DNA from: Candidatus Kapaibacterium sp.
Lineage (GTDB): Bacteria > Bacteroidota > Ignavibacteria > Kapaibacteriales > UBA2268
Length of the DNA stretch: 64,000 nucleotides
Assembly: GCA_963665665.1 (NCBI GenBank)
Contig: OY762428.1
Span: forward strand, 640,001 to 704,000
Direction of reading: 5' to 3'
Position numbers and translations under genes: made by a program. The notes beneath the pieces are model-generated. The model saw only the letters and a program-made list of their open reading frames with translations, was not told where the DNA came from and made no database searches. Every line of letters starts with the position of its first letter. The first letter of the stretch is position 1. This document shows, piece after piece, positions 1,649 through 45,543 of the stretch.

Positions 1649-4600
1649 TTACTCCACAACCAGCTTATCATAATAAATGCCGGTGGCGGTTTTCAGGATG
1701 AGGAAGTAGAGGCCTGAGGATAATTCCTGAATGTTTATTTTAATATTGTCTTTGCTGTTAATGGGAAGTTCGCGGAGGAGCTTGCCCTGTGAATCGTATA
1801 TTTCAAGGCTTTGGAGATTGGAGATGTCGCCGCTGAGATTGATTTCGATTTGGCCGGTTGCAGGGTTGGGACAGGCTGTGATGCCGGGGATGGCGAATGT
1901 GGATATGGCGCGAAGGTCGCCAATGCAGATCTCTTCGACCTTCAGCAGGCCGTTTTGGGTGGAATTGTCGATATAAGGGCTGTCCCACTCGAAGCTGTTT
2001 ATTTTTAATTCGCATTCTCGAATGTCGGAAAGAAGCAGGCCGCCGGATAGTTCCGCTATTGCCTGTTCGCCTTTGCTAAGGCTGATGTTCTCGCCTGATA
2101 TGCTTAAAATCCGCTCCCTGCCTGATATTTCATTGCTGAGAATGGTTGCGTTGTCAATTCCCGAAAGGTCGTAAAGATAGGCGTCAAGACTTATTTCAGC
2201 GGTGTAGGAAAGTCCGCTTACATCCTCGGTGGAATTCAGGTTTACCATTAACGGGATGCGGAAATCAGGATCGCCTATCGTACCCGATGTTTCGGGGAAT
2301 AAAATCAGGTTTTCATGTTTTACTATTCCTGATATATCTATAGTATCCCGGTATTCGCAGAATGGCCCGTTGAATTTAATATATATTTTATCTTCATATT
2401 CTCCTGCAATGCCTGAAAATAAAGATACAGTCAGCATTTCCGAAAGTCCCGCATTGATTTTCCTTCCTGCCATGTCGGGAGCAATTGAAAATTCGGCTGC
2501 ATTTTCAAGGTTGATTTCTTCTATCGTAAAATCATATTCTGCCGTGTTCTTTAATTCAATTTGTTCTGTTGCGTTTTCGCTGATCCTTGCTGAAACCGAG
2601 ACGAATTCCGGAATATCGTAAAGTATTGTGTATCTTTCACCTTGCAGCTCTGTAATGAATTCCACTTCAACCATATCGATCAATATTATATTTCGAGCCT
2701 GTGCTGTTTTCGGGCCGTTTATGGATGATTCGGGAGTGAAAATGACTTTCTCAATTATTGATTCTCCGGGCAGAATCTCAATATTCTCATAATTGTCTTC
2801 GAATGAAAACAGCTCTTTGTCAGCGCCTTGAATTTCTCCTGAAAGTAGTGATATTGGTAGTTTGCCGGTGTTTTTAATCTCAATATCCATCGTTTTGGAC
2901 TGGCAGAATTCAGTTTCATTATAATTGCAAATGGGAGTTACTTCAACGGAGGATTTTATGCCTGTGGCATCAATTCTGAAAGCCACTGTATCAGGGCAGG
3001 GGCCTTGAATAATGATCTGCGGCCATGCTGAATAATCGATAGGATCACTTAGTTTGATCTTTGTATCAATTTCATAATTCTCTCCGGCAGGGATAGTAAA
3101 TGATTGCGGCTGAATTTCCAGCCAGGCATGGTTCTCAATTATTTCGGATATTGTTAGTTCGAAGCCGTTGTGATTGGTGAGTACACATTTCAAAGTTGAA
3201 TTGCGGTTTATTCCCACATTGCCGAAGGAAATATTCTCAGCAGTGAGGTTCACAGATTCGGTCTCGCCGCGAAGCCGGACAGTGCGGAATTCCTCCTCAG
3301 GATGGTCGGTTTTGATCCTCAGTTCGCCAGTTTTCAGCCCGTCGGGCGCTTGTGGGGTAAAGCGTATCACATAAAAAGCGGTGTCGAGAAAATTAAGGAC
3401 AGTCCCCATTGGCGTGGCCGACACAATTTCAAAATCATCTTTATTATTAAGGTATCCTTCGTCAAGGAGTTCAACCGGGGCTGCGCCGCAGTTCACAAGC
3501 CTGACGGTGTCTTGCGGGGTCTTGCAGTCAGCCACGAAGCCGTAATCAATATCGTTGGCTTTTAGCTCGTAGCGAAGTGTAATAGTATGCAGGTTTACAA
3601 AGCCGTCTATCGGACAGGCCTCGCCAATCTTTTGAGTTTCAATCGAAAGGGTATCGAAATATTCCTCTTCTGCTGTGCCCTGGACTGTCATTGTAACTAT
3701 CATGCTGTCGCCGGGAATGAGGACTGCCGGTATAGCCGGGTCTGTTTCACTGATCCTGAATGGCAGATCGAACTCATTTAAGTCGCTGATATACAAATCT
3801 GAAGTTCCGGTATTGTGTATTGTGAACGTCTTTTCTGGTCTTTTCCCGAACTTCACATACCCGAAGTCAATATCATTGCTGATCTCCATTCCCGGCTCGA
3901 CAACGAGGGCTTTTATCAGCAGGGAATCCATTACAGCATCGTCTTCATTGCAGTAGATGTACATCATTGTTTCAATCGGCCCGGTTTTGTCCGGGGCAAT
4001 ATGTATTCTCACACCAAGGGTATCATTCCAGAAAAGAGAATCCCCGCGCATGAATTCGCCCGAGAAATGCTCTGAGTCAGTAAACACCGGCGGCTTTAGT
4101 TGCAGGCCGAAATCCGAGAAATTCTTAACTGCCGCATATCCTGTTTTCGTATCGCCAAGGCATATTTTCCCAAGATCAAGGGCACTAATTTCGTTAAAAT
4201 TGTTATATTTTACTATTTGAAAATGAATTTTTGTTTTGGTACTCGCCGTTCTTACAATTCTAAAACCAACATATTCAGATTTATACTTAAGATACTTTGG
4301 ACAATTCCTATCGGACGCTCTACAATATGCAGATCTATTCCCAAAACATCCCCCTCTCATAACATGGACCCTCCCTTTAATTGGCCCTCGAGGATCAACT
4401 GAAGGTGCTTCTTCGTAATATTTAGAATCATACCAGTCCCAAACCCATTCCCATACATTACCAATCATATCAAAAAGACCGTATGAATTTGGATCTTTCT
4501 TACCTACATTATGAGTCTCATTGTTTGAATTTCCACAATACCACGCAATTTTATTCTCATTGTTATCAATTGGGAAACAATCAAAATTATCAATATTTCC

Positions 4601-5065
4601 AGAATATATGTCAGTTGATGTTCCTGCTCTGGATGCACATTCCCATTCAACATCAGTTGGAAGCCTATATCCAGATGCTTCAAAATCACATATTACATTT
4701 TCATTTTCAATTATATAACAAGGCTCTAATCCGTCAATTTTTGATAAATTATTACAGAATTCAATGGCTTCAAACCACGAAATATTTTCGACTGGCCTGT
4801 TTTTACCATGAAAAACACTATTATTATATCCCATAACATTTTCCCAATCAGCTTGACTAATCTCGAATTTACCAATATAAAAACTATAGGATATTGTTGC
4901 CTTATGAACTGGAGTTTCATCACGATGAGACTCAGGAAATGAAGTAATATTGCCTCTAATATAAGAACAACTATCAATTTTTATCATTTTTTCAATAAAA
5001 TAAGCATCTTTGGAGAATGCACGATAGCAACTTAGTATTAATAGAATCATTATAATAAAACGCAT
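1649..5065 (-). CDS. Secreted modular protein: FGE-sulfatase (SUMF1/C-type-lectin-fold) head + Ig-like repeat stalk (choice-of-anchor D/ASH-like) + cohesin-like domain + T9SS CTD
   Basis: Signal peptide; FGE motifs RLPTDVEWE, NSYGLFDMIGNVWEW, RGG, GFRIVR; repeated DFG..N.G motifs; C-terminus PNPA...IYDSQGK...LSSGLYFL...KLVVE. Confidence 0.88.
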   Translation of the reverse strand: MRFIIMILLILSCYRAFSKDAYFIEKMIKIDSCSYIRGNITSFPESHRDETPVHKATISYSFYIGKFEISQADWENVMGYNNSVFHGKNRPVENISWFEAIEFCNNLSKIDGLEPCYIIENENVICDFEASGYRLPTDVEWECASRAGTSTDIYSGNIDNFDCFPIDNNENKIAWYCGNSNNETHNVGKKDPNSYGLFDMIGNVWEWVWDWYDSKYYEEAPSVDPRGPIKGRVHVMRGGCFGNRSAYCRASDRNCPKYLKYKSEYVGFRIVRTASTKTKIHFQIVKYNNFNEISALDLGKICLGDTKTGYAAVKNFSDFGLQLKPPVFTDSEHFSGEFMRGDSLFWNDTLGVRIHIAPDKTGPIETMMYIYCNEDDAVMDSLLIKALVVEPGMEISNDIDFGYVKFGKRPEKTFTIHNTGTSDLYISDLNEFDLPFRISETDPAIPAVLIPGDSMIVTMTVQGTAEEEYFDTLSIETQKIGEACPIDGFVNLHTITLRYELKANDIDYGFVADCKTPQDTVRLVNCGAAPVELLDEGYLNNKDDFEIVSATPMGTVLNFLDTAFYVIRFTPQAPDGLKTGELRIKTDHPEEEFRTVRLRGETESVNLTAENISFGNVGINRNSTLKCVLTNHNGFELTISEIIENHAWLEIQPQSFTIPAGENYEIDTKIKLSDPIDYSAWPQIIIQGPCPDTVAFRIDATGIKSSVEVTPICNYNETEFCQSKTMDIEIKNTGKLPISLLSGEIQGADKELFSFEDNYENIEILPGESIIEKVIFTPESSINGPKTAQARNIILIDMVEVEFITELQGERYTILYDIPEFVSVSARISENATEQIELKNTAEYDFTIEEINLENAAEFSIAPDMAGRKINAGLSEMLTVSLFSGIAGEYEDKIYIKFNGPFCEYRDTIDISGIVKHENLILFPETSGTIGDPDFRIPLMVNLNSTEDVSGLSYTAEISLDAYLYDLSGIDNATILSNEISGRERILSISGENISLSKGEQAIAELSGGLLLSDIRECELKINSFEWDSPYIDNSTQNGLLKVEEICIGDLRAISTFAIPGITACPNPATGQIEINLSGDISNLQSLEIYDSQGKLLRELPINSKDNIKINIQELSSGLYFLILKTATGIYYDKLVVE

Positions 5066-5253: not shown

Positions 5254-5341
5254 TCACTCTGAGCGCAGCGAAGAATCCATTCTTTATGATTTTCTGCTAT
5301 TTTATATGGATTCTTCGGTCGCTTCGCTTTCTCAGAATGAC
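5254..5341. repeat. REP-like palindrome pair (TCACTCTGAGCGCAGCGAAGAATCC...GGATTCTTCGGTCGCTTCGCTTTCTCAGAATGAC); related copies at 1196-1518, 9236-9324, 13724-13813, 19661-19725, 44345-44408
   Basis: Inverted-repeat arms seen directly, six or more copies in the window. Confidence 0.85.
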
Positions 5342-5401: not shown

Positions 5402-8400
5402 TTACTCCACAACCACCTTATCATAATAAACGCCGGTGGCGGTTTTCAGGATGAGGAAGTAAAGTCCTGAGGACAAGTCCTGAATGTTTATTTTAATTTT
5501 GTCTTCGCTGTTGACGGGGTGTTCGCGGAGGAGCTTGCCCTGTGAATCATATATTTCAAGGCTCTGCGGATTGGAAATGTCCCCGCTGAGGTTGATTTCG
5601 ATTTGGCCTGTTGCAGGGTTGGGACAGGCTGTGATGCCGGGGATGGCGAATGTGGATATGGCCCGAAGGTCGCCGATGCAAATTTCTTCGACCTTGAGCA
5701 GGCCGTTTTGGGTGGAATTGTCGATATAGGGGCTGTTCCACTCGAAACTGTTTATTTTTAATTCGCATTCTCGAATGTCGGACAGGAGCAGGCCGCCGGA
5801 TAGTTCTGCTATTGCCTGTTCGCCTTTGCTAAGGCTGATGTTCTCGCCCGATATGCTTAAAATACGCTCCCTGCCTGATATTTTATTGCTGAGAATGTTT
5901 GCGTTGTCAATTCCCGTAAGGTCGTAAAGGTAGGCGTCAAGGCTGATCTCGGCGGTGTAGGACAATCCGCTTATATCCTCGGTGGAATTCAGGTTCAACA
6001 TTAACGGGATGCGGAAATCAGGATCGCCTATAGTTCCTATTGTTTCGGGGAAGAAAATCAGGTTTTCATGTTTTACTATTCCGGATATTTCAATTGTATC
6101 GCGGTATTCGCAGAAAGGCCCGGCAAACTTCAGGTATATTTTATCTTCATAATCTCCTGCAATGTTTGAAAATAAAGATACAGTCAGCATTTCCGAAAGT
6201 CCCGCATTGATTTTCCTTCCTGCCAGGTCGGGAGTAATAGAAAATTCGGCTGCGTTTTCAAGGCTGATTTCTTCTATAGTAAAATCATATTCGCCGGTAT
6301 TCTTGAATTCAATTTGTTCTGTTCCGTTTTCGCTGATCCTTGCCGAAACCGAGACTGATTCAGGAATTTCGTAAAGTATGGTATATCTTTCGCCTTGCAG
6401 TTCTGTAATAAATTCTTCCTCAACCATATCGATCAATATTATATTTCGAGCCTGAGCCGTTTTCGGGCCGTTTGTTGATGATTCGGGAGTGAATACAACT
6501 TTCTCAATGATGGAATTTCCCGGCAGAATCTCCAAATTTTCATAACTATCTTCGAATGAAAACAGCTCTTTATCAGTTCCTTGAATCTCCCCGGAAAGTA
6601 GTGTTAGCGGTAGTTTACCGGTGTTTTTAATCTCAATATCCATCGTTTTGGACTGGCAGAATTCCGTTTCATTATAATTGCAAATGGGAGTTACCTCAAC
6701 GGAGGATTTTATGCCGGTAGCGTCAATTCTGAAAGCCACTGTATCCGGGCAGGGGCCTTGAATAATGATCTGCGGCCATGCTGAATAATCGATAGGATCG
6801 CTTAGGTTGATTTTCGCATCTATTTCATAATCCTCGCCTGCCGGGATGATGAATGATTGCGGCTGAATTTCCAGCCAGTCATGATTCTCAATTATTGAGG
6901 AAATAGTCAGGTCAAAGCCGTTGTGGTTGGTGAGTACGCATTTCAAAGTTGAATCGCGGTTTATTCCTACATTGCCGAAGGAAATATTCTCAGCAGTGAG
7001 GTTCACAGATTCTGTCTCGCCGCGAAGCCTGACAGTACGGAATCCCTCTTCAGGGTGATCTGTCTTAATCCTCAGTTCGCCATTTTTCAGGCCGTCGGGC
7101 GCTTTTGGGGTAAAGCGTATAACGTAGAACGCGGTGTCGAGAAAATTGAGGACAGTCCCCATTGGTGTTGCCGACACAATTTCAAAATCATCTTTATTAT
7201 TAAGGTATCCTTCGTCAATGAGTTTAACCGGGGCTGCGCCGCAGTTCACAAGCCTGACGGTATCTAACGGGGTCTTGCAGTCTGCCACGAAGCCGTAATC
7301 AATATCGTTTGCAGCAAGTTCATAACGCAGTGTTATAGTATGCAGTTTCACAAAACCGTCAATCGGACAGGCCTCGCCAATCTTTTGGGTTTCAACGGAT
7401 AGCGTATCAAAATACTCCTCTTCGGCTGTGCCCTGAACTGTCATTGTAACTATCATGCTGTCGCCGGGAATGAGGACTGCCGGTATAGCCGGGGCTGTTT
7501 CGTAAACCTTAAAAGGCAGCTCAATATCGTTAAAACCGCTGATATACAGGTCTGAAGTTCCGGTATTTTGGATTGTGAATGTCTTTTCTGGCCTTTTTCC
7601 GAACTTCACATACCCGAAGTCAATATCATTGCTGATCTCCATTCCCGGCTCAACGACGAGGGCTTTTATCAGCAGGGAGTCCATTACAGCATCGTCTTCA
7701 TTGCAGTATATGTACATCATTGTTTCAATCGGCCCGGTTTTGTCCGGGGCAACATGTATTCTAACGCCAAGCGTATCATTCCAGAAAAGCGAATCCCCGC
7801 GCATGTATTCGCCCGTGAAATGCTCTGACTCAGTAAACACAGGCGGTTTAAGCTCAAGGCCGAAATCCGAGAAATTCTTAACTGCCGCAAAGCCTGTTTT
7901 AGTATCGCCAAGGCATATTTTACCAAGATCAAGGGTATCAAACTGCTCTTCAATATCTTTATCGTAAATCTCAAAATTAATTCTCTCAACGGTAAATTTT
8001 GCGAGGAATGCTGGATGGCCGGGTACCTGGTAATCTGTATTTACAGGGTTCCATACTTTTGGAAGATTATCTTCCGCACGGCCGCCAACTAATATTGTAT
8101 TTGGCGGTTCAAATTTTATTGTAAATAGAGAAACAGGAACATTGTATTTCCACAATATCTTTCCATTAGGATCAATTTTATAAATTGCATGAGTTGAAGC
8201 TATATAAGCATTTCCGAACTGATCAACAGCATTTATCTGGTATTCATTCATCGGATCTACATCAAATAAAGCTTCGTTAGTGGGGTAAATAATATTATAA
8301 ATCAGGTTCCCATCCTTATCAATCTTTGCAGTACATTTATTATCCCAGGGTGTATCGTCAAAATTACAATCAACACCCGAAAAAATAATATTATCATCAC

Positions 8401-9112
8401 TATCGACTGCAATCCACCTGACTTCATATCCCGATATTGATTTTTTTCTAAACAGGACTGAACCGTCTTCTTTATTTAAAATATAGTAATTATAATCCAA
8501 CATGGAATGTGTGTCTGATCTTAGAACGATCAGATCATCATTACTATTTAATGCAATAATAAGTACATCGTTTGCAAAATATTTTTTCCATTCAAGAATT
8601 CCGTCTTTATTAATTTTACAGAAATTTTCGCAATATCCATAACGGCAATAAATATTTCCTTCTTTATCTGAAATAAGATATGAGAATATGGGAACAACTT
8701 CGGGATCTTTGAATGACCATAATAGTTCACCGTCGGGAGAGTATTTTTCAAGAGTTTTATTTGTTCCGATAATAATGTTGTCCCAGGGATCAATACAAAT
8801 AGTCGGCAGCCTTTCTTTAAGCAATAATTTTTCCCATATCCGATTGGAATTAGAATCCAATTTGACTAAATAGGTTTCCCAGTCTATTTTATATCCCGGT
8901 TCATAATCTGTTACAAAAACAACATTACCTTTTGAGTCGTAATCAATATCATCCGTTGTTGCTCCTGTATAATATGCAGCCCAGTCTAAGTGAATGGGGA
9001 TGCTGTCAATGTTACGGGAAAAGGCTGATAAATAAGAAATGATAAAGATTGACATAAATATAAGGGAACGCGAAAGTATATAATCAAAAATATTTTTGTA
9101 TTTGTCCGGCAT
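5402..9112 (-). CDS. Secreted modular protein: beta-propeller-like (SBBP/PQQ-like) head + conserved Ig-repeat stalk + T9SS CTD
   Basis: ORF 5402-9127; start placed at MPDKYK (9112) by comparison with paralog leaders; D..GN / K...DG...W blade motifs; stalk nearly identical to the 1649 gene. Confidence 0.88.
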   Translation of the reverse strand: MPDKYKNIFDYILSRSLIFMSIFIISYLSAFSRNIDSIPIHLDWAAYYTGATTDDIDYDSKGNVVFVTDYEPGYKIDWETYLVKLDSNSNRIWEKLLLKERLPTICIDPWDNIIIGTNKTLEKYSPDGELLWSFKDPEVVPIFSYLISDKEGNIYCRYGYCENFCKINKDGILEWKKYFANDVLIIALNSNDDLIVLRSDTHSMLDYNYYILNKEDGSVLFRKKSISGYEVRWIAVDSDDNIIFSGVDCNFDDTPWDNKCTAKIDKDGNLIYNIIYPTNEALFDVDPMNEYQINAVDQFGNAYIASTHAIYKIDPNGKILWKYNVPVSLFTIKFEPPNTILVGGRAEDNLPKVWNPVNTDYQVPGHPAFLAKFTVERINFEIYDKDIEEQFDTLDLGKICLGDTKTGFAAVKNFSDFGLELKPPVFTESEHFTGEYMRGDSLFWNDTLGVRIHVAPDKTGPIETMMYIYCNEDDAVMDSLLIKALVVEPGMEISNDIDFGYVKFGKRPEKTFTIQNTGTSDLYISGFNDIELPFKVYETAPAIPAVLIPGDSMIVTMTVQGTAEEEYFDTLSVETQKIGEACPIDGFVKLHTITLRYELAANDIDYGFVADCKTPLDTVRLVNCGAAPVKLIDEGYLNNKDDFEIVSATPMGTVLNFLDTAFYVIRFTPKAPDGLKNGELRIKTDHPEEGFRTVRLRGETESVNLTAENISFGNVGINRDSTLKCVLTNHNGFDLTISSIIENHDWLEIQPQSFIIPAGEDYEIDAKINLSDPIDYSAWPQIIIQGPCPDTVAFRIDATGIKSSVEVTPICNYNETEFCQSKTMDIEIKNTGKLPLTLLSGEIQGTDKELFSFEDSYENLEILPGNSIIEKVVFTPESSTNGPKTAQARNIILIDMVEEEFITELQGERYTILYEIPESVSVSARISENGTEQIEFKNTGEYDFTIEEISLENAAEFSITPDLAGRKINAGLSEMLTVSLFSNIAGDYEDKIYLKFAGPFCEYRDTIEISGIVKHENLIFFPETIGTIGDPDFRIPLMLNLNSTEDISGLSYTAEISLDAYLYDLTGIDNANILSNKISGRERILSISGENISLSKGEQAIAELSGGLLLSDIRECELKINSFEWNSPYIDNSTQNGLLKVEEICIGDLRAISTFAIPGITACPNPATGQIEINLSGDISNPQSLEIYDSQGKLLREHPVNSEDKIKINIQDLSSGLYFLILKTATGVYYDKVVVE

Positions 9113-9384
9113 GGTCTCCATCCTCATTTTTTCTTATTATTATGATAATATATGTAAATATAACAAATTATACGGCATAAAGTTGCAGGGGTTTTGAATT
9201 ATTATTTCCGGCCCTGTCTCAAACCCCGCAGAGCTGTCACTCTGAGCGCAGCGAAGAGTCCATTCTTCAAGATTTTCTGCTATTTTGTATGGATTCTTCG
9301 GTCGCTTCGCTTTCTCAGAATGACCGCTTTATACAATTTTTCCAGATTTCCAAAGTTCAGCTGAATAGTAACTTTCGTTTATCC

Positions 9385-12300
9385 CTACTCTACAACCACC
9401 TTATCGTAATAAATGCCGGTGGGGGTTTTAAGGATGAGGAAGTAGAGGCCTGAGGACAAGTCCTGAATGTTTATTTTAATTTTATCTTTGCTGTTGAGGG
9501 GAAGTTCGCGGAGGAGCTTGCCCTGTGAATCATATATTTCAAGGTTTTGAGGGTTGGAAATGTCGCCGCTGAGACTGATTTCGATTTGGCCGGTTGCAGG
9601 GTTGGGGAATGCTGTGATGCCGGGGATGGCGAATGCGGATATTGCCCGCAGATCGCCGATGCAGATCTCTTCCACTTTCAGCAGGCCGTTTTGGGTGGAA
9701 TTATCGATATAAGGGCTGTCCCACTCGAAGCTGTTTATTTTTAATTCGCATTCGCGTATGTCTGAAAGGAGCAGGCCGCCGGATAGTTCCGCTATTGCCT
9801 GTTCGCCATTACTAAGACTGATATTCTCGCCTGATATGCTTAAAATACGTTCCCTGCCTGATATTTTATTACTTAGAATGTCTGCGTTATTAATTCCCGA
9901 AAGGTCGTAAAGGTAGGCGTCAAGGCTGATTTCAGCGGTGTAGGAAAGTCCGCTTACATCCTCGGTGGAATTCAGGTTCACCATAAGCGGAATGCGGAAA
10001 TCAGGATCGCCTATCGTTCCTATTGTTTCGGGAAAGTAAATCAGGTTTTCATGTTTTACTATTCCGGATATATCAATAGTATCCCGGTATTCGCAGAAAG
10101 GCCCGGCAAATTTCAGGTATATTTTATCATCATAATCTCCTGCAATGCCTGAAAATAATGATACAGTCAGCATTTCCGAAAGTCCCGCATTGATTTTCCT
10201 TCCTGCCAGGTCGGGAGCAATAGAAAATTCGGCTGCGTTTTCAAGACTGATTTCTTCTATAGTAAAATCATACTCGCCGGTATTCTTCAATTCAATTTGC
10301 TCTGTTCCGTTTTCGCTGATCCTTGCCGAAACCGAGACGGATTCAGGAATTTCGTAAAGTATTGTGTATCTTTCACCTTGCAGCTCTGTAATAAATTCTT
10401 CCTCAACCATGTCTATCAATATTATATTTCGAGCCTGTGCTGTTTTGGGGCCGTTTGTTGATGATTCGGGAGTGAATACGACTTTCTCAATTATTGATTC
10501 TCCAGGCAGAATATCTATGTTTTCATAACTATCTTTGAATGAAAAGAGTTCTTTATCAGTTCCTTGAATTTCACCGGAAAGTAGTGATATGGGCAGGCTG
10601 CCGGTGTTTTTAATCTCAATATCCATCGTTTTGGACTGGCAGAATTCAGTTTCATCATAATTGCAAAGCGGAGTTACCTCAACGGAGGATTTTATGCCTG
10701 TTGCGTTAATTTTGAAAGCCACGGTATCCGGGCAGGGGCCTTGAATGATGATCTGCGGCCATGCAGAATAATCGATAGGATCGCTTAGGTTGATTTTCAC
10801 ATCTATTTCATAATCCTCGCCTGCCGGGATGATGAATGATTGCGGCTGAATTTCCAGCCAGCCATGGTTTTCAATGATTGAGGAAATAAGCAGGTCGAAA
10901 CCGTTGTGGTTGGTGAGTACGCATTTCAAAGTTGAATCGCGGTTTATTCCCACTTCGCCGAAGGAAATATTCTCAGCAGTGAGGTTCACAGATTCTGTCT
11001 CGCCGCGAAGCCTGACAGTACGGAATCCCTCTTCAGGGTGATCTGTCTTAATCCTCAGTTCGCCAGTTTTAAGTCCGTCGGGCGCTTGAGGAGTAAAGCG
11101 TATCAGGTAGAACGCGGTGTCGAGAAAATTGAGGACAGTCCCCATTGGCGTTGCCGACACAATTTCAAAATCATCTTTATTTTTCAGGTATCCTTCGTCA
11201 AGGAGTTCAACAGGGGCTGCGCCGCAGTTCACAAGCCTGACGGTGTCTAACGGGGTCTTGCAGTCCGCCACGAAGCCATAATCAATATCGTTTGCAGCAA
11301 GTTCATAACGCAGGGTTATAGTATGCAGGTTCACAAAGCAGTCGATTGGGCAGGCCTCGCCAATCTTTTGTGTTTCAATAAAAAGGGTATCGAAATACTC
11401 CTCTTCGGCGGTGCCCTGGACTGTCATTGTAACTATCATGCTGTCGCCGGGAATGAGGACTGCCGGTATAGCCGGGTCTGTTTCCGTGATCCTGAATGGC
11501 AGATCGAACTCATTTAAGTCGCTGATGTACAAATCTGAAGTTCCGGAATTGTGTATTGTGAATGTCTTCTCGGGACGTTTCCCGAACTTCACATACCCGA
11601 AGTCAATATCATTGCTGATCTCCATTCCCGGCTCTACGACGAGGGCTTTTATCAGCAGGGAATCCAATATCTCATCATCTTCATTGCAGTAGATGTACAT
11701 CATTGTTTCAATCGGCCCGGTTTTGTCCGGGGCAATATGTATTCTCACACCAAGTGTATCATTCCAGAAAAGCGAATCCCCCCGCATGTATTCGCCGGAA
11801 AAATGCTCGCTATCATCGAATACAGGCGGTTTCAGTTCAAGGCCGAAATCAGATAGGTTTTTTAAAGCAATATCAGCAGTGTTAGTTTCATTTACACATA
11901 TCCTGCCCATGTTAAGAGTATCAATTTTATATTTTGCAAGTTTATCCATGATTTCAATCTTCAACGCTTCGATAGTAAATTTGGCGAGATAGGCTATATG
12001 GTTTGGTACCCGGTAATCCGTATTTACAGGTGAATAATATTTTTCTAATTTACCAGGGGTGTTGCCACCAATACATAAAGTGTTAGGTGGTTTGAATTTA
12101 GTTGAATAGGCATAGTCATCAATGTGAAATTCATTAACTCCAAACTGGTATTCCCATAAAATCATCCCGCTGGGATCTATTTTTTTGATCAAAACATCAA
12201 AATTATCTTTTTTACCTGTTAGTATCAGTAGTGCAACAAAGGCGTTACCATATTGGTCAACTGAATTTATTTGAAATTCATGAACCGGATCAACATCAAA

Positions 12301-13092
12301 AATTGACATTGGCGGATGTATTATATTATAGATAATATTCCCTTCTTTATCTATTTTTGTTGTACTTTCATTATCCCCAGCTGAGTCGTCATAATTAAAA
12401 TCACCACCTGAAAAAATTATATTATCATCTTTATCTACCGCAATCCATCTGACTTCGTATCCGGGTATTGAATTTTTTCTTTGTATAATCGAACCGTCTT
12501 CCTTATCCAAAATATAGTAATTATAATCTAAGGTAGCACGAGTATCGGACCGAAGAACAACCAGGTCATCATTGCTGTTAACAGCAATGATGAGTATTCC
12601 TAAGCCTAAATTCTGCTTCCATGCAAAATTACCATCTTTATCAATTTTCATAATTCTGTTCTTACCCTCTAACCTGGCATAGATATTTCCCTCGCTGTCA
12701 GAAACGAGATAATTAAAAATTCGTTCGTTATCATAAGAAAAATTCCATATCAATTCTCCGTCAGAAGAATATTTTTCAATATGTTCTGATGAACTTACGA
12801 TAATATTATCATAAGGATCAATTGTTAATGCTCCCAAACCTCTGTCCTCAAAATTTATTTCCCATATTAGTTTTGAGTCAGAGTCAAATTTAACTAACCT
12901 GTCGTAACTTGCACCTGGCCCGTCAGCAATAAAATAGACATTATCTTTAGAGTCAAAATCAATATCAGATACAACAATTCCTGAATAATAAGCAGCCCAG
13001 TCTAAGTGAATTGGGATACTGTCTCTTGTCTGGGAATTGGTTGAAGATATTGATATTATAAAAACTAAAATAGATAGTATTAAAGCACGCAT
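9385..13092 (-). CDS. Secreted modular protein: beta-propeller-like head (different variant) + conserved Ig-repeat stalk + T9SS CTD
   Basis: ORF 9385-13356; signal peptide MRALILSILVF begins at 13092 after GGAGTTTTT; the in-frame upstream extension is the 9-bp repeat. Confidence 0.88.
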   Translation of the reverse strand: MRALILSILVFIISISSTNSQTRDSIPIHLDWAAYYSGIVVSDIDFDSKDNVYFIADGPGASYDRLVKFDSDSKLIWEINFEDRGLGALTIDPYDNIIVSSSEHIEKYSSDGELIWNFSYDNERIFNYLVSDSEGNIYARLEGKNRIMKIDKDGNFAWKQNLGLGILIIAVNSNDDLVVLRSDTRATLDYNYYILDKEDGSIIQRKNSIPGYEVRWIAVDKDDNIIFSGGDFNYDDSAGDNESTTKIDKEGNIIYNIIHPPMSIFDVDPVHEFQINSVDQYGNAFVALLILTGKKDNFDVLIKKIDPSGMILWEYQFGVNEFHIDDYAYSTKFKPPNTLCIGGNTPGKLEKYYSPVNTDYRVPNHIAYLAKFTIEALKIEIMDKLAKYKIDTLNMGRICVNETNTADIALKNLSDFGLELKPPVFDDSEHFSGEYMRGDSLFWNDTLGVRIHIAPDKTGPIETMMYIYCNEDDEILDSLLIKALVVEPGMEISNDIDFGYVKFGKRPEKTFTIHNSGTSDLYISDLNEFDLPFRITETDPAIPAVLIPGDSMIVTMTVQGTAEEEYFDTLFIETQKIGEACPIDCFVNLHTITLRYELAANDIDYGFVADCKTPLDTVRLVNCGAAPVELLDEGYLKNKDDFEIVSATPMGTVLNFLDTAFYLIRFTPQAPDGLKTGELRIKTDHPEEGFRTVRLRGETESVNLTAENISFGEVGINRDSTLKCVLTNHNGFDLLISSIIENHGWLEIQPQSFIIPAGEDYEIDVKINLSDPIDYSAWPQIIIQGPCPDTVAFKINATGIKSSVEVTPLCNYDETEFCQSKTMDIEIKNTGSLPISLLSGEIQGTDKELFSFKDSYENIDILPGESIIEKVVFTPESSTNGPKTAQARNIILIDMVEEEFITELQGERYTILYEIPESVSVSARISENGTEQIELKNTGEYDFTIEEISLENAAEFSIAPDLAGRKINAGLSEMLTVSLFSGIAGDYDDKIYLKFAGPFCEYRDTIDISGIVKHENLIYFPETIGTIGDPDFRIPLMVNLNSTEDVSGLSYTAEISLDAYLYDLSGINNADILSNKISGRERILSISGENISLSNGEQAIAELSGGLLLSDIRECELKINSFEWDSPYIDNSTQNGLLKVEEICIGDLRAISAFAIPGITAFPNPATGQIEISLSGDISNPQNLEIYDSQGKLLRELPLNSKDKIKINIQDLSSGLYFLILKTPTGIYYDKVVVE

Positions 13093-13123
13093 AAAAACTC
13101 CGGGATAGTATGATTCTAAACTT

Positions 13124-13325
13124 GGATTAATAGGATGTATAGGATTAATAGGATGGACAGGATTAATAGGATGAACAGGATTAATAGGATGAACAGGATG
13201 GACAGGATTAATAGGATGAACAGGATGAATTGGATGAACAGGATGAATTGGATGAATTGGATGAATTGGATTAATAGGATGTATAGGATGTATAGGATTA
13301 ATAGGATGTATAGGATTATTGGGAT
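13124..13325. repeat. 9-bp tandem repeat array (23 GGAT cores), paralog of 881-1046
   Basis: GGAT at 13124 ... 13322 in 9-bp steps; flanks nearly identical to the first copy. Confidence 0.95.
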
Positions 13326-13544
13326 AATCAATCTCATTTTTTGTTGGAAATGGCATATTTTCATCCTCTCCTTTTTTATTCTTGTGATTTAGCTAATATA
13401 ACAAATTATATAGTGCAAAGTTGCAGGGGTTTTGAATTATTATTTCCGGCCCTGTCTCAATCCCCGCAGAGCTGTCACTCTGAGCGCAGCGAAGAGTCCA
13501 TTCCTAATTGACAATGGACAATTAAGAATTAAAAATTGGAAGAA

Positions 13545-15113
13545 GCCACCTGTCCCCCGCTGTCGCCGACGTGTCGGGAAAGGGCGGGGTGGACTTCCGG
13601 AAAAATTCCCCTCCCTTGGAGGGGATTAAAGGGGTGGTTTCTTTTTCTTAGCCTCCGCACCTTGCACATTTACCCACGAGCTAAAGCACGTGGCTATTGA
13701 ACTTGACGATGGTAAAACTGCATGTCATCCTGAGTGAAGCGAAGGATCCATTCTTTATGCATCAGCTACTAAGAAAGATGGATTCTTCGGTCGCTTCGCT
13801 CCGTCAGAATGACAACATACTACCTCCTTCTCCGGCCCTTACCCCCCGTTTTTCCACCCCAATGAACAGGCCGCAGGACTTAATTCCCTATCCTGTGGTT
13901 TCAATGAACCGGATAATTTCCTTACTTCAATGCTGTTTTGAACCAGAATTCAAATGTTTGGGCTAATTGCTTGGATTGCAGGGCTTTAAACTGCCATGGC
14001 CGGAGTTATTGAATCATTGTTTGGCCTTAATGTAGTGAAATTTGGCCTTATTGAGGACTTGTTTAGCCTTATTGAGGACTTGTTTGGCCTTACTGAGGAC
14101 TTGTTTGACCTTATTGAGGTCTTGTTTGACCTTACTGAGGACTTGTTTGACCTTACTGAGGACTTGTTTGACTTTACTGAGGTCTTGTTTGGCCTTACTG
14201 AGGACTTGTTTAGCCTTACTGAACACTTGGTTGACCTTACTGAACACTTGTTTGACCTTACTGAACGCTTGGTTGATCTTACTGAACATGTTCTTTGCCT
14301 CCGACCAAGAGTTCAATGACTTCGACCAAGGCAGAAATGACTCCGACCAAGGCGTCAATAACTCCGAACAAGGCAGCAATATCATCAAACATCGGTGCAT
14401 CGATTTGGAACAATGCAGCAATAAAGCAAAACATTGATGCAATAGCGTCGAACAAGTGTTCATTATCACCAAACATCGGTGCATCGATTTGGAACAATGC
14501 GTCATTATCTTCAACCAAGGCGGCAATGACTCCGACCAAGGCGGCAATGACTTCGACCAAGGCATCAATAACTCCGAACAAGGCAGCAATATCATCAAAC
14601 ATCGGTGCATCGATTTGGAACAATGCAGCAATAAAGCAAAACATTGATGCAATAGCGTCGAACAAGTGTTCATTATCACCAAACATCGGTGCATCGATTT
14701 GGAACAATGCGTCATTATCTTCAACCAAGGCGGCAATGACTTAAAACATTGGTGCATTGCTTCCAACCAAGTCAGCAACAGAATCAAACATTGATGCAAT
14801 AGCGTCGACCCCTCCCAAACCCTCCCCGAAGGGGAGGGCTTTGAAGAAAAACATTGCTGCAATGACTTAGACCAAGGCATCAATAACTCCGACCAAGGCG
14901 TCAATTGTTTCGACCAAGGCAGCAATAAAGCAAAACATTGGTGCAATGGCTTCAACCCCTCCTACCTCCCCCCGGCTCCCTCCTTCGGAAGGAGGGGGAG
15001 TTAATCTTATGATATTTAACTTCTTATCCCCTCCTCAGGGAGGAGGGGAATACAGGGGAGGTTTTCTTTATCTTAGCTTCCTTTATCCACGAGCTAAAGC
15101 ACGTGGCTATTGA
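13545..15113. mobile_element. Composite non-autonomous repeat element, copy A (ordered REP-like modules enclosing a 21-bp foldback array)
   Basis: Colinear with 44160-45543; CCACGAGCTAAAGCACGTGGCTATTGA direct repeats at 13674-13700 and 15087-15113; mobility is inferred only from the dispersed copies. Confidence 0.6.
13852..14960. repeat. Inverted pair of 21-bp tandem arrays around the palindrome GAACATGTTC (14284-14293), copy A
   Basis: 12 clean left units at 14041-14292; right-arm units are reverse-complement-like; 210-bp-period internal duplication. Confidence 0.9.
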
Positions 15114-19302: not shown

Positions 19303-19374
19303 CCCCGCCTTCGCTTTCAGCGCTGACAGGTTCAGGATTGAAAGCGGCGGCTGTCCCTCAACTCAACCATCATC

Positions 19375-19905
19375 AAAATTCAATAGCCAGATGCTCTATC
19401 TCGTGGATAAAGATATCTTGAGGCTAAGAAAAAGAATCCACCCCCATCTGCTTGCGCAGACACCCCCATCCCGAAAGCGGCGTAGCCGCGACATTTTTGT
19501 AGAAAGGCGAATTCGGAAAGGACAACAGCCCCGTAGGGGCGACATTGGCAAAAGATTGTGTCGCTCCTACGGAGCTTTGAATAATCGTTATGTAAACATT
19601 ATCTACAAAAATCCCGCTCCTACGGAGCTTTTTTTATATGATTTCGATGCTCTTGCGACGGAAGAATCCATCTTTGTTTGCAGATAATGTATGAAGAATG
19701 GATTCTTCGCTCCGCTCAGTATGACAATCCGCCCAGAGCATCGCAAAATTCAATAGCCACGTGCTTTAGCTCGTGGATAAGGGTGCAAGGTGCGGAGGCA
19801 AAGAAAAAGAATCCACCCCGCCCTTTGGGCACCCCAGCCAGCAGGGAAGTTTTATAAAATCAGCCATCCAGAAAGCGGTGTAGCCGCGACATTTTTGTAG
19901 TACGG
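19375..19905 (-). repeat. Cluster of REP-like modules including a GTAG-type pair (19527-19576) and inverted copies of the modules at 44220-44410
   Basis: GTAGGGGCGACA...TGTCGCTCCTAC; TCAATAGCCACGTGCTTTAGCTCGTGG at 19750-19776 and a degenerate copy at 19380-19406; 19375-19505 is repeated at 19745-19905. Confidence 0.85.
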
Positions 19906-21412: not shown

Positions 21413-22852
21413 TCAATCACACACATCACAGCTATTGCAATTCTCTTCACCGCTGATGCCAAAATATTCAGATATATACTGTTTCCGGCATTTTCCTGTC
21501 TTGAAATACCTGACAATTTCCAAAAGCCTCATCAGGTCGGATTTTAATTTGGTTTGTGTAAAATCATCATCGAAAAGTAATTCGGGCATATCCCCGGTGA
21601 GCCTTAAATTTCCCTTCGACAGGCTGCCCTCAGATGCTCCATAGCGGTCAAGCATTGCCATTGCTGTTTCAAGGCGGAAATCATTCCTGTTTTTGAAAAC
21701 CAGTTCCTCGCGAAGGAATTCCATTCCAAGAGTATTGATTTTATCCGCATTTGCTTCCAGGATAGCATACAGCCTTCTGTAAAACTTGCTGTCGGGATTT
21801 GACCATTTAATAAAATCCGTTTGAATGTCAACATCGGAGTCGCTGAAGAGCAGTTTGCAAAGTGACGGATCGCCGTCACGTCCTGCACGGCCAATCTCCT
21901 GGTAATATGATTCGATGGAAGACGGCAGTTCGGCATGTATAACGAACCGGATATCTGCTTTATCGATTCCCATACCAAACGCGTTCGTTGCCAGAACCAA
22001 AGATTCTTCGGAGGAAATAAAAATATTTTGTGCGGTCTTTCTTTCAGCCGCTGATAATTTACCATGATAAACCAAATGAGGTATGTTATTCTTACTAAGG
22101 TAAGCTGAGAACTGATCAAGTGTTTTGATCAGTGAGAAATAAATTATTCCCGAACCCCTGAATTTCTGAAGAACAGAAAGAATCTCTTTCATTTTGTCCT
22201 TTTCATCATAAACATCCACAGCTTCAAGGCGAAGGTTAGGCCTTTCGATACCGCTGTTGAATTGAAGTATTTCATCAGGTTCAAGCCCCAGGTTCTTTAT
22301 TATATCCTCTCTTACCGATGGTGTAGCTGTTGCGGTTAAGGCTATTGTCAGAGGGTTGCCGATCAATTCCCGGAATTCAGCTATCCTGGAATAATCAGGC
22401 CTGAAATCATGTCCCCACTGGCTAATGCAATGGGCTTCATCCACCGCGAGAAGAGAAATATTCGATTTTTTAATTCCCTCAACAAATTCTTTTTTCCTGA
22501 ATCTTTCAGGCGTAACGTACAAAAGTTTGATCTTTCCTTTGATGAAAAGCTCAAGTCTTTTTTGTTTATTTTTTTTTGACACAGTGGAATTTATAAATTC
22601 AGCCGGAATGCCTTTTTCTTTTAGTTTATTTACCTGATCCTGCATCAGGGCAATAAGCGGGCTGATAACCAAAGTGCCGCCTTCAAATAGCATTGCCGGC
22701 AATTGATAGCAAAGCGACTTTCCGCCGCCTGTCGGCATTGTAACAAGGCAGTTCTTATTTTCCACAACTAATGAATTAATAATATCTTCCTGTAATGGAA
22801 GGAATTTACTTAATCCGAACTCTTTATTTAGAACCTGTATTATATTTTTCAA
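21413..22852 (-). CDS. recQ: RecQ-family ATP-dependent DNA helicase (short form, no HRDC)
   Basis: MPTGGGKSLCYQ, DEAHCISQWGHDFRPDY, ATNAFGMGIDK, QEIGRAGRDG, C-terminal Zn-binding cysteines. Confidence 0.92.
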   Translation of the reverse strand: MKNIIQVLNKEFGLSKFLPLQEDIINSLVVENKNCLVTMPTGGGKSLCYQLPAMLFEGGTLVISPLIALMQDQVNKLKEKGIPAEFINSTVSKKNKQKRLELFIKGKIKLLYVTPERFRKKEFVEGIKKSNISLLAVDEAHCISQWGHDFRPDYSRIAEFRELIGNPLTIALTATATPSVREDIIKNLGLEPDEILQFNSGIERPNLRLEAVDVYDEKDKMKEILSVLQKFRGSGIIYFSLIKTLDQFSAYLSKNNIPHLVYHGKLSAAERKTAQNIFISSEESLVLATNAFGMGIDKADIRFVIHAELPSSIESYYQEIGRAGRDGDPSLCKLLFSDSDVDIQTDFIKWSNPDSKFYRRLYAILEANADKINTLGMEFLREELVFKNRNDFRLETAMAMLDRYGASEGSLSKGNLRLTGDMPELLFDDDFTQTKLKSDLMRLLEIVRYFKTGKCRKQYISEYFGISGEENCNSCDVCD

Positions 22853-34600: not shown

Positions 34601-35427
34601 TATTCAAAAATTTGATCGCAATTATTTGAAAATTTCTTCAAACTTTCAGAAGGATATTGAAATGTGAAATAATACAAATCATCATCATTGTCCGAAAAGA
34701 TTGTAGCCGGAAAATCGGGTAATGTTTTTGCAGAAATGTGATCGCCGTTTTCGCCCGAATATTTTATTACTTCAAAATCACCGTTCTTTTTTTTACAATA
34801 AAGCAAACAGTCGTCGTCGGAATTAATACCGAGTTGCACTTGCTCGAATAAAAAGTTTTCGAGATAAATTTCCCATTGCAACGAACCGTTGTTATTATAC
34901 TTAGTAATGTATAAATCATTGCTTTCGTAACTTAGTTTATTTATCAGAAAAAAATTCCCTATACTGTCGAAAACAATAAAATCATTTTTAAAATTTATGT
35001 AAGCGAATTCATCCTGTATAGGAACCTGCCATAAATATTCACCTTCCGAATTGAATTTAAACAGAGTATCAAATTTGAAAATGAATATATTGTCGAATGG
35101 ATCAGCTTCAATATCCCATTCCGGGTAATCTGAGCTTCCGGGTTCAAAACTCCACCGGTTAGTCCATTTTTTTCTCCATAATTCATTTCCGTTTTTGTCC
35201 AATTTGAGCAATCGGAGCGTAAATTCACTTGGATGCATTACATGATCAAGAACTTCAATTTTATACAGGCAGGCCTTAGAATCAGTGCATACATCAGTTT
35301 TGTAAGCATTGAAAAGAACCTCGGTATCAACTTCCCATTCTTTCGTTATCAAACGCCTTGCATCAGGCTGTGAATAAAGATTATTTAACGATAATATAAA
35401 AAAAAGGCAGAAAATGATAGGGCGCAT
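31678..35427 (-). CDS. Diverged fifth paralog: beta-propeller-like head + Ig-repeat stalk + T9SS CTD
   Basis: Stalk colinear with the 1649/5402/9385 genes (WNDTLG, IETMMYI.C, DGLKTGELRIKTD, IQPQSFIIPAG, LLLSDIR.C, VEEICIG). Confidence 0.88.
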   Translation of the reverse strand: MRPIIFCLFFILSLNNLYSQPDARRLITKEWEVDTEVLFNAYKTDVCTDSKACLYKIEVLDHVMHPSEFTLRLLKLDKNGNELWRKKWTNRWSFEPGSSDYPEWDIEADPFDNIFIFKFDTLFKFNSEGEYLWQVPIQDEFAYINFKNDFIVFDSIGNFFLINKLSYESNDLYITKYNNNGSLQWEIYLENFLFEQVQLGINSDDDCLLYCKKKNGDFEVIKYSGENGDHISAKTLPDFPATIFSDNDDDLYYFTFQYPSESLKKFSNNCDQIFEYNLNSEYKPGHSSNLFRWNRKDDQICFDERNSSYTCGFIDSDISGKEYDMSFILKLDKDGNEKWAYVDTLPYNEIYSQIQFCAPNIIYVSGYRWKDSNNRKFYYPPFTAKFLVNEIAYDISDSSGSNPIDTLNMGRLCLGETGTKFITIRNYSDYDIKLNDPDFEDSEQFSAEYLRGNTLHWNDTLGLNISLIPDSPGLIETMMYIICEQDETIIDSLMIIAEVVESKMTVSNDIDFDYVKTGQKPEMDFTIYNSGETDIYINSLTDFDTPFVLKETIPEIPALLHPGDSIAVTITLNLSEEEEYFDTLSVETLKTEGACPATGFVNLHVSGLKYDLKANDIDFGMIASCKTTIDTILIVNYASKVITLLSEGVLTNNSDFSLIDGVAAGTRLDLLDTARYIISFNPTPPDGLKTGELRIKTDNTDIEFVSSSLTGESESVNLSVSDIHFGDIAINTDSTLKCILVNNNSFDIKISAIEENGDWIDIQPQSFIIPAGQDFEIEVKINLDEAKAHTISPRIIVEAPCPDTVQFNIDASGIKSSLELTSLCNFGKAEFCKTQTMDIEIKNTGNLPVTLISGGISGPDKELFTFAEIYENIKIDPDSSFIEKIIFSPGNVEIGMKSAIVKNKLLVDNSEQEFITDLTGEKITIEYNIPKSVSLLSEINETGNSQIVIENTGMNNITIEEIYLKDGTGFLISPDLTGETILPGSSKTIDISLFSAFAGTYNDEIFIKFSGPDCEYRDTIKTVGVVKQDILISFHDTIGVIGDMNFRIPLYLKSNSNEILEGLSFTAVISFDAFLYHLEAIENATIVSDERLGRDRIISFTGNNLCVGMGEQVIAELIGSLLLSDIRKCDLKIISFEWNDPDLSATTADAVIEVEEICIGNLRNITTFKMPGIYIYPNPASSKVEIKLSADISNPGIIDIFSAQGKLILSSKVSSKGKIELDVEDLQPGLYIIVLKTDTCIYYEKLIVE

Positions 35428-44159: not shown

Positions 44160-45543
44160 TTCCCTGTCCACCGCTGGCGCCGACGAGTCGGGAAAGTGCG
44201 GGGGTGGATTCTTAAAATTCCCCTCCAGTGGAGGGGTGGCGAGCGCAGCGAGACGGGGTGGTTTCTTTTTCTTAGTCCCAAGGTATTTTTATCCACGAGC
44301 TAAAGCACGTGGCTATTGAATTTTGCGATATTCTGGATGGATTGTCATTCTGAGCGCCAGCGAAGAATCCATTCTTAATGCACTATCTGCAAACAAAGAT
44401 GGATTCTTTTTCCGATTGTTGGCCAATAATTTTAAAAATCCCCCCTAATCGCCTCATTCTTTTGCTCTGTCCCCCCGTTCTTCCACCCCAATGAACAGGC
44501 CGCCGGCCTTAATTCCCCAACCTGTGGTTTCAATGAACCGGATAATTCCCTTACTTCAATGCTGTTTTGAACCAGAATTCAAATGTTTGGGCTAAATGCT
44601 TTGTTGGCAGAGCTTTAAACTGCCTTGGCCGGAGGTATTGAACTACTGTTTGGCCTTATTGTAGTGAAATTTGGCCTCATTGAACACTTGGTTGGCTTTA
44701 CTGAACACTTGGTTGACCTTACTGAACACTTGGTTGGCTTTACTGAACACTTGGTTGACCTTACTGAACGCTTGTTTGACCTTACTGAACACTTGGTTGA
44801 CCTTACTGAACACTTGTTTGACCTTACTGAACACTTGTTTGACCTTACTGAACGCTTGGTTGACCTTACTGAACGCTTGGTTGACCTTACTGAACGCTTG
44901 GTTGATCTTACTGAACGCTTGGTTGATCTTACTGAACATGTTCTTTGCCTCCGACCAAGAGTTCAATGCCTCCGACCAAGAGTTCAATGCCTTCAACCAA
45001 GAGTTCAATGCCTCCGACCAAGGCAGCAATGACTCTGACCAGGGCGGCAATGACTCCGACCAAGGCATCAATAAAGCAAAACATTGGTGCAATAGTGTCG
45101 TCCAAGAGTTCATTATCTTCAAACAAGGCGGCAATGACTTCGAGCAAGGCGGCAATAACTCCGGCCAAGGCGGCAATGACTTCAACCAAGGCGTCAATAA
45201 CTCCGACCAAGGCGGCAATAAAGCAAAACATTGCTGCAATAGTGTCGACCAAGACCTCAATACCTCTGACCCCTCCCAAACCCTCCCCGAAGGGGCGGGC
45301 TTTGAAGAAGAATAAGGCAACAACAGAATAAAACATTGATGCAATAACTTAGAACATTGGTGAAATGCCGCTGACCCTTCCTACCTCCCCCCGGCCCCCT
45401 CCTTGGGAAGGAGGGGGAGTTAATTCTATGATATTTAACTTCTTATCCCCTCCTAAAGTAGGAGGGGAATACAGGGGAGGTTTTCTTTCTTTGCTTCCGA
45501 CCAGTGCATTATTATCCACGCGCTAAAGCACCTGGCTATTGAA
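44160..45543. mobile_element. Composite non-autonomous repeat element, copy B
   Basis: Same module order as 13545-15113; CCACG.GCTAAAGCAC.TGGCTATTGA at 44293-44319 and 45516-45542. Confidence 0.6.
44481..45375. repeat. Inverted pair of 21-bp tandem arrays around GAACATGTTC (44934-44943), copy B
   Basis: 13 clean left units at 44670-44942; right arm starts with ctccgaccaagagttcaatgc units, reverse-complement-like to the left. Confidence 0.9.

Follow-up and report, generated by a model that had tools for sequence, protein, structure and literature searches.

The window analysed here, the 64,000 nucleotides at positions 640,001 to 704,000 of contig OY762428.1 (GenBank assembly GCA_963665665.1, Candidatus Kapaibacterium sp.), carries two copies of a composite element in which two opposed arrays of 21-bp units meet at the short palindrome GAACATGTTC. 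Copy A lies at 13549-15113 and copy B, 30.6 kb away and oriented likewise, at 44167-45542; both are intergenic and flanked by open reading frames (ORFs) of annotation quality. From left to right each copy consists of a module designated X, a hairpin repeat designated H, a left arm, the palindrome, a right arm, and a second module, X'. The copies were aligned over 1766 columns with 82% column identity, and their similarity ends on both sides. The palindromic core, ~1 kb in each copy, spans 13848-14960 in A and 44477-45379 in B, and within the window the 21-bp arrays and a 22-mer of the outer arm (two occurrences) are restricted to these two loci. With about even confidence, we take the element to be a lineage-restricted, non-coding foldback minisatellite situated in a cluster of repeats. 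Its parts, including those identified with Tandem Repeats Finder (TRF), are as follows.

13549..13700, plus strand: module X of copy A, a G-rich hairpin, a T-run, and then the 27-mer CCACGAGCTAAAGCACGTGGCTATTGA; left limit of the A/B homology.
13724..13813, plus strand: hairpin repeat H of copy A, GTCATYCTGAG...GAATGAC, a dispersed palindrome resembling repetitive extragenic palindromic (REP) sequences; repeat families D10, D13, I5, and I7.
13848..14040, plus strand: outer left arm of copy A, ~9 decayed 21-bp units, with CAATGAAC at 13861 and 13903 in array phase.
14041..14288, plus strand: inner left array of copy A, ~12 homogenised units of CTTGTTTGACCTTACTGAGGA and its variants (TRF).
14284..14293, no strand assigned: central 10-bp palindrome GAACATGTTC of copy A, the centre of symmetry.
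14289..14960, plus strand: right arm of copy A, an uninterrupted series of 32 in-register 21-bp units, GCNNCAAT.......AMCAWK.
14314-14741: 210-bp tandem duplication in the right arm of copy A (TRF, 2.0 copies, 97%).
About 14809-14850: G/C hairpin segment in the right arm of copy A, exactly 42 nt.
14961..15113, plus strand: module X' of copy A, two G/C hairpins, a T-run, and CCACGAGCTAAAGCACGTGGCTATTGA again; right limit of the A/B homology.
44167..44319, plus strand: module X of copy B, from the A/B alignment and the 27-mer.
44344..44420, plus strand: hairpin repeat H of copy B, its right half decayed; families D10 and I7.
44477..44938, plus strand: left arm of copy B, 22 units, the outer ones decayed and the inner 12 homogeneous (CTTGGTTGACCTTACTGAACA).
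44934..44943, no strand assigned: central palindrome GAACATGTTC of copy B, the centre of symmetry.
44939..45379, plus strand: right arm of copy B, 21 units in register, with a 42-nt G/C hairpin segment at about 45269-45310.
45380..45542, plus strand: module X' of copy B, from the A/B alignment; the 27-mer with 2 mismatches.

Both copies were tabulated in steps of 21 nt starting at the centre. The left arms were 441 nt in A and 462 nt in B, equal to 21 and 22 units, and the right arms were 672 nt in A (462 nt minus the 210-bp duplication) and 441 nt in B; with the duplication removed all four arms measured 441-462 nt, in agreement with the 440-460 bp that had been estimated by eye. TRF resolved the inner left arrays as 11.7 copies with 89% matches and 0 indels in A (14041-14285) and as 12.3 copies with 93% matches and no indels in B (44681-44938), and in the right arms it detected degenerate arrays of 21-bp units showing super-periods of 42, 84, and 210 bp. 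A single register runs through all of the right-arm units (32 in A, 21 in B), resuming beyond the G/C hairpin segment because that segment is exactly 42 nt long. Among 34 distinct right-arm units read in reverse-complement orientation, the only near-invariant positions (91-100%) were TG at 3-4, T at 6, A at 14, and TG at 16-17, and the most conserved positions of the left-arm units are the same ones. The AT skew flips sign at the central palindrome of copy A. The units follow one another head to tail with no spacers, and the arrays are accordingly not of the CRISPR kind. A segment of ~190 bp that resembled a leader was considered as a promoter or RNA domain and rejected, being composed of decayed units in array phase.

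The arms show signs of continued change. The 210-bp (10-unit) duplication in copy A, with 97% identity, is recent, and the inner left array of copy B has been homogenised, its units showing a mean identity of 0.91 within the array versus 0.80 between B and A. When units of the same rank were compared between copies, identity was 1.0 at the centre and dropped to 0.57. Together these three observations argue for turnover of each arm. The outer left arm of A was ~92% identical to that of B (16-17 differences in 60-64 compared codons).

To describe the inverted relation of the arms, pairing was scored outward from the centre. Watson-Crick pairs were present at 161 of 294 positions in A and at 168 of 294 in B, with 8-16 such pairs and 0-5 G-T pairs in each 21-nt unit over ~14 units and no indel in either copy. 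The initial annotation, which had reported two opposed 21-bp arrays meeting at GAACATGTTC in exact register and pairing outward without indels, was confirmed as a whole at both loci, and the inverted unit pair that it quoted (15/21) and the peptide pairs that it took from the open frames (the AGGIELL and VGGIELL frames) were found as well. In-phase registers gave 55-57% pairing over 294 nt, compared to 34-38% for the best out-of-phase registers (at most 100 and 113 of the 294 positions in the two copies) and a mean of 27%. When the columns of the right-arm units were permuted 20000 times, means of 78 and 76 pairs were obtained (standard deviations of 17-19), and the observed values were reached 0 times and once, respectively; the inverted similarity therefore stood well above the shuffled-unit control on which the initial annotation had staked it. 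For arms of 84 nt the junction is the unique maximum of self-complementarity (0.60 in A and 0.64 in B), whereas centres placed inside one array gave 0.45 at most. The decayed outer-left units at 13993-14023 remain 76-81% complementary to right-arm units (repeat families I15 and I16), which points to common descent of both arms, and over the outermost ~150 nt of the arms pairing is at the background level.

These values must be read against several controls. The consensus units match in inverted orientation at 11-13 of 21 positions only, and unrelated arrays elsewhere gave 6-13 when rotated freely. Self-complementarity of at least 0.57 was reached inside direct arrays at 9 of 81 other 21-bp-array loci (among the matches listed in the genome search described below), and 0.56 or more was attained by 7% of arrays simulated from random units. 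Given such control values, 56% self-complementarity is by itself ordinary for periodic DNA. What is unusual about the element is that the orientation switches from one array to a different one, and not how much the arms pair.

The six conserved positions and the exact register bear on the possibility that each 21-bp unit, equal to two helical turns, binds a sequence-specific protein contacting TG..T / A.TG, so that ~45 protomers would form two opposed filaments meeting at the palindrome in the manner of an iteron array, a centromere, or a transposon end. We consider such a phased scaffold unlikely. In its favour, the remaining positions of the unit vary, the ~53 units of each copy have accumulated no indel and the hairpin segment inserted among them measures a whole number of units, and the orientation changes exactly at the palindrome. 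Slippage by whole units can by itself keep register, however, and the two near-invariant motifs are spaced 13 and 8 nt apart and so do not lie on one helical face, contrary to the original description of two motifs about one helical turn apart. A scan with Pfam of 33 neighbouring ORFs in the window found no rep, par, or transposase gene or other partner, and the element had no match in the plasmid and phage collections. To our knowledge, iteron and centromere arrays also have far fewer sites. The strict 21-nt register and the six near-invariant positions are the sole hints of function: as features of the sequence, they are compatible with a phased protein-binding array and also with unit-length slippage in a young family of units.

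A second functional reading, in which a bulged stem on the scale of 300 bp would be transcribed and act as a processing substrate, antisense regulator, stabiliser, or terminator, or in which the corresponding single-stranded DNA would fold, appears very unlikely to us. Copy B (638 nt) folded far better than its shuffled versions on both strands (plus strand, -208.1 kcal/mol, z = -7.6; minus strand, -214.5 kcal/mol, z = -5.7; 0 of 20 shuffles as good in each case), but any inverted repeat automatically beats shuffles and the result is weak evidence. Beyond the right arm, both copies have a terminator-like site on the plus strand (14976-14998 in A, 45395-45417 in B), whereas a scan for sigma-70-type promoters detected none upstream of the arms in either copy and none in the outer left arm; the numbers of promoters and terminators in these scans were not above those in shuffles. 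Differences compatible with G-U pairing on the plus strand had been pointed out at the outset, and G-T pairs do exist (25-28), but they are not in excess of the A-C mismatches (19-21), so that neither strand is preferred. Mismatches make up 40-45% of positions and in most units fall at the fixed positions 7, 9-13, 15, and 18-21. Of 23 double changes between A and B, affecting both sides of a pair, 6 kept the pair in the true register, versus 4/23, 4/22, and 7/28 in slid controls, a comparison of low power as it involves two copies. No Rfam family matched at the gathering score anywhere in the window, and at E ≤ 1 the two loci gave only rows at chance level (E = 0.08-0.74), far below the cut-off. 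The initial proposal of a long bulged RNA or single-stranded DNA hairpin was not borne out by the fixed mismatches, the lack of G-U bias, and the lack of excess compensatory change.

The third alternative is that the periodicity reflects a heptad-repeat protein, encoded either by a minus-strand ORF spanning the whole element or by convergent small ORFs (AGGIELL...LTEHV on the plus strand and ...GIELLVGGKEHV on the minus strand) yielding peptides resembling coiled coils; we regard it as most improbable. Four of the six frames are open in each arm, as a unit poor in stop codons would lead one to expect. In both copies the entire element can be read on the minus strand in one frame that meets no stop codon (for 313 aa in A and 233 aa or more in B), but only 0.7-0.9 stops were expected in the open frame of column-shuffled right arms (P = 0.34 and 0.12), and their absence is therefore unremarkable and follows from unit composition. 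The ratio of nonsynonymous to synonymous differences (pN/pS) between the copies was 0.56-1.68 over the six frames and 1.39 for the stop-free frame in the right arm, i.e., near 1 throughout, although this ratio is a blunt one on repeat arrays and the aligned units may not be orthologous. Whichever frame is read, third codon positions are among the near-invariant ones, whereas variation is seen at first and second positions. The two copies share no start for the long ORF, whose translation has a high content of Cys, His, and Trp; the left-arm part of this ORF does resemble a classical a/d heptad and gave weak coiled-coil Pfam matches. The start of the small plus-strand ORF has the same location in A (ATG) and in B (TTG), whereas the small minus-strand ORF of the right arm has different starts in the two copies and extra stops in A.

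Protein searches were conducted with the minus-strand 233-aa, the plus-strand 135-aa, and the 313-aa ORFs as queries, the small minus-strand ORF of the right arm being left out. A HMMER search of the 313-aa ORF against 1.84 billion representatives returned 114 partial, generic heptad matches, with 0 at E ≤ 1e-30 and none full-length. Pfam analysis of 10 ORF translations gave only noise of the coiled-coil type and one repeat-driven match above the cut-off, to ApoB100_C. In word-indexed searches, the 135-aa ORF had 0 matches among 8000 candidates and the 233-aa ORF had 1 partial match among 3829 candidates. The latter, P0001, is a predicted 130-aa protein from a 1.05-Mb contig of another assembly; its nine SKANQVF/SKANHVF heptads, the same as those of our frame, favour a protein, its flanks are unrelated, and the heptads are the antisense reading of a unit variant found in copy B. 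P0001 is probably a related 21-bp array elsewhere. The pN/pS values, the expected absence of stops, the mixture of codon positions among the conserved nucleotides, and the lack of a full-length relative lead us to conclude that the element is non-coding, and the conserved heptad protein that had been named at the outset as a competing explanation of the periodicity thereby fails.

The flanking modules are dispersed repeats in their own right, since they recur in the window and do so also where no array is present. The 27-mer CCACGAGCTAAAGCACGTGGCTATTGA occurs 5 times in the window, including once on the minus strand at 19750-19776, compared to 0 expected, and the H motif occurs 6 times; X and H are found together on the minus strand at 19370-19830, around unrelated filler lacking a 21-bp array. 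Module X sites are located at 13549-13700, 14961-15113, 19370-19830 (minus strand), 44167-44319, and 45380-45542, forming direct-repeat pairs that bracket different fillers. Its sequence TTATCCACG resembles a DnaA box. A family of REP-like hairpins, TCAYTCTGAGCG.AGCGAAG.ATCC ... GGATTCTTCGGTCGCTTCGC..TCAGAATGAC, fills many of the intergenic regions (1196-1233, 1455-1518, 5254-5341, 9237-9324, 13475-13512, 13724-13813, 19655-19726, and 44344-44420).

The rest of the window is ordinary chromosome, with Pfam-supported genes for citrate synthase, malate dehydrogenase, the flagellar export proteins FlhB, FliR, and FliP, FeoB, RecQ-like helicases, and several cargo proteins of the type IX secretion system (T9SS). 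The co-occurrence of flagellar and T9SS genes would fit an Ignavibacteria-like member of the Fibrobacterota-Chlorobiota-Bacteroidota (FCB) group. Integrase genes were also absent from the 33 ORFs scanned, and the window contains no tRNA gene. The idea that A and B border a mobile island was rejected, given the housekeeping genes between them and the lack of integrase, transposase, or tRNA genes. The two RecQ-like helicase genes lie at 21413-22852 (without RQC and HRDC domains) and 48131-50743 (with both). Large paralogous T9SS-cargo genes, with HYDIN/VesB-like immunoglobulin, DUF1573, and Por_Secre_tail domains, are arranged in tandem at 1649-5065, 5402-9127, and 9385-13356, with others at 1-1077 and 31678-35427; segments at the gene ends and in the intergenic regions are 87-93% identical among these paralogues, with 100% identity over 32 and 40 nt. 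Directly upstream of two of them are 9-bp tandem arrays of GGATGAATA (881-1037 and 13124-13316; 17.4 and 21.4 copies, 80% matches, no indels), which the longest ORF reads as (H/N)PI(H/N)P... followed by MRALILSIL..., resembling a signal peptide. These 9-bp arrays probably belong to the 5' leader or promoter and not to the protein.

The distribution of comparable arrays was examined in a collection of 185,579 species genomes. A specific two-unit pattern had 0 loci there; the window itself carries the pattern, as judged by eye, and its source species, or this region of it at any rate, lies outside the collection. A degenerate periodic pattern retrieved at least 81 loci from the same collection, mostly unrelated 21-bp arrays whose likeness to our unit is partly forced by the pattern. 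Among the matches listed, 48 of the 81 loci had no array-spanning open frame extending 100 aa or more past the array, and most arrays comprised roughly 9-16 units. Arrays of 21-bp units that look intergenic were met repeatedly in genomes of Bacteroidota, Ignavibacteriota, and Nostoc, and one genome often has several of them built of a single unit (e.g., L017, L020, L030, L021, and L058). The unit CGTGTTCTGAACGAATGGACT was present in five Nostoc/Nostocales genomes (L022, L023, L024, L043, and L044) and its variant ...GAATGACCT in two more (L028 and L066). In Ignavibacteria bacterium UBA2373 (L053), a 12.8-copy array is located between X-like hairpin modules at 1560-1640 and 2735-2790, and at another locus (L063) a 12-copy array of GCGTCAATCAAGTCTTCAATA is flanked by H-like hairpins; the three intergenic arrays of Flavobacterium flavipigmentatum F-70 have the repeats alone in common.

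No clear second case of a foldback of opposed 21-bp arrays was recognized among the 81 matches listed by inverted BLAST, consensus comparison, and a self-complementarity scan, all of which are crude tests. Inverted BLAST gave matches in 12 of the 81 loci listed, and the long ones were either inverted arms around an array or opposed arrays of 70-145-nt units. At L040 (Bacteroidota, 1413-2451) a 14-copy 21-bp array is enclosed by 195-nt inverted arms that are 91% complementary, a frame around a minisatellite like that of a MITE (a transposable element of the miniature inverted-repeat type) and like that of the BrickBuilt elements discussed below, and inverted arms flank the array at L026 as judged by coordinates only. 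At L079 (Odoribacteraceae), opposed arrays of hairpin-containing units of about 70/145 nt (2137-2414 and 2556-2869) are 83-91% complementary and adjoin three distinct 21-bp arrays; here too tandem units make up a foldback, but of another kind. The architecture of our element is uncommon and its register strikingly exact, while orphan 21-bp arrays are widespread.

The reading that we favour, a lineage-restricted foldback minisatellite, implies the following history. An old inverted duplication of a tandem array of 21-bp units would have come first, centred on a short palindrome and probably caused by strand switching in the course of replication or repair. Thereafter each arm may have turned over separately by unit-length slippage or unequal exchange, which would keep the 21-nt register and homogenise blocks of units while the two arms diverged from each other. 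The whole segment of 1.4-1.6 kb between its hairpin/terminator-like X modules, and not the palindrome alone, appears to have been copied to a second intergenic site, probably because X copies recombined or underwent gene conversion with each other, or because the segment was mobilised in trans. Under this scheme the element would have no dedicated cellular function, and any effects it exerts, such as forming an imperfect hairpin when transcribed by read-through or separating divergent genes as a barrier, would be side effects. The first interpretation, a phased protein-binding scaffold or a long hairpin, is thus upheld in part: the element is a true foldback, contains no protein gene, and belongs to no curated family, but neither of the proposed functions has evidence.

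Several findings weigh against a neutral minisatellite. Only two copies are available, and they are linked and share their flanks. A 21-nt register maintained through some 53 diverged units per copy and across the 42-nt hairpin represents more order than neutral decay predicts, and within the unit six positions are 91-100% conserved while the others vary; this excess of order and the six conserved positions hint at constraint on the DNA or RNA itself. The bluntness of pN/pS on repeat arrays counts on the same side. Also, no inverted 12-mer (with up to 2 mismatches) is common to both copies at the ends of the core or of the duplicated segment, and in the absence of terminal inverted repeats a MITE route of spread is unsupported too. 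It is quite unlikely, in our view, that the element is instead a dedicated chromosomal cis-scaffold of a sort undescribed in bacteria, in which a mirror array of ~45-53 phased 21-bp sites would load a protein or form a bulged hairpin, or a bacterial counterpart of the Foldback transposons that is moved in trans. If the register and the invariant dinucleotides did reflect binding or folding, the element would represent a bacterial cis-element of a new type. If it is only repetitive DNA, as in the minisatellite interpretation, its long ORFs (313 and 233 aa) are spurious and should be kept out of protein annotation, and it marks a class of intergenic 21-bp arrays that is barely described and is seemingly common in cyanobacterial genomes and in those of the FCB group. 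Its two-armed form shows that a minisatellite in a bacterium can be duplicated in inverted fashion and be retained.

Among known systems, the REP sequences and bacterial interspersed mosaic elements (BIMEs) resemble the flanking modules H and X, which behave likewise as dispersed hairpin repeats; the 21-bp arrays, in contrast, are not short palindromes, and centres within one array are 45% self-complementary at most. Iteron and centromere arrays such as R1 parC, P1 incA, and F sopC consist of phased direct repeats of ~11-43 bp to which a single protein binds in many copies, and in some the repeats form two opposed groups; they comprise ~3-12 sites and are found beside rep or par genes on plasmids or phages. 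Our element, unlike these, is chromosomal and has ~45-53 units, and neither a rep or par gene among the 33 window ORFs scanned nor a match in the plasmid and phage collections was found. The long inverted arms of the Foldback (FB) transposons of Drosophila and other eukaryotes are composed of short sub-repeats in tandem and can adjoin each other with hardly any central loop or none, and the inner repeats differ from the outer ones in regularity; in addition, the termini of these elements are defined, target sites are duplicated, and some copies encode a transposase. The likeness to them is one of architecture only. A nematode example of a Foldback element is treated in PMC3169594. In common with MITEs, the element is short (core of ~1.1 kb), intergenic, and free of a transposase or conserved ORF, but because terminal inverted repeats are lacking at either boundary we do not file it as a MITE. 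The flanks X, H, and X' are common to both copies, so that there are no independent insertion sites to compare for a target-site duplication; CCCCCCG is present on both sides of the core, in a C-rich region.

In the literature we found no description of a bacterial element built of opposed tandem arrays, and the nearest is BrickBuilt of Porphyromonas gingivalis. According to Klein et al. 2015 (PMC4596501), BrickBuilt is a spacer-less minisatellite of 23-nt units in 1-22.8 copies with a leader and a tail, bounded by 12-nt IS5-like terminal inverted repeats and present in 19 intergenic copies; bidirectional promoter activity, predicted long stem-loops, and the lack of an Rfam match are also reported there, as are the 41-nt repeats of MITEPgRS (MITEPgRS/464). 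The initial statement that the sequence is not a described bacterial element therefore holds insofar as nothing matched in Rfam, in the phage and plasmid collections, or in the protein families searched, whereas the kind of element is not wholly undescribed, since BrickBuilt and MITEPgRS are repeat elements of Bacteroidota that are intergenic and carry minisatellites (PMC4596501). BrickBuilt differs from our element in several respects: ours has two opposed arrays meeting at a palindrome, its apparent leader consists of decayed units, its 21-nt unit has no sequence similarity to that of BrickBuilt, it lacks terminal inverted repeats, and only 2 copies of it are known. The two share an FCB-group host, a strictly intergenic position that is often next to T9SS-cargo genes, a size of ~1 kb with no ORF of their own, a spacer-less array of units of 20-odd nt with conserved and variable positions, predicted long stem-loops, the lack of an Rfam match, restriction to a species, and terminator-like hairpins nearby. 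We conclude that BrickBuilt is the closest described analogue of the element, the likeness being one of kind and not of membership.

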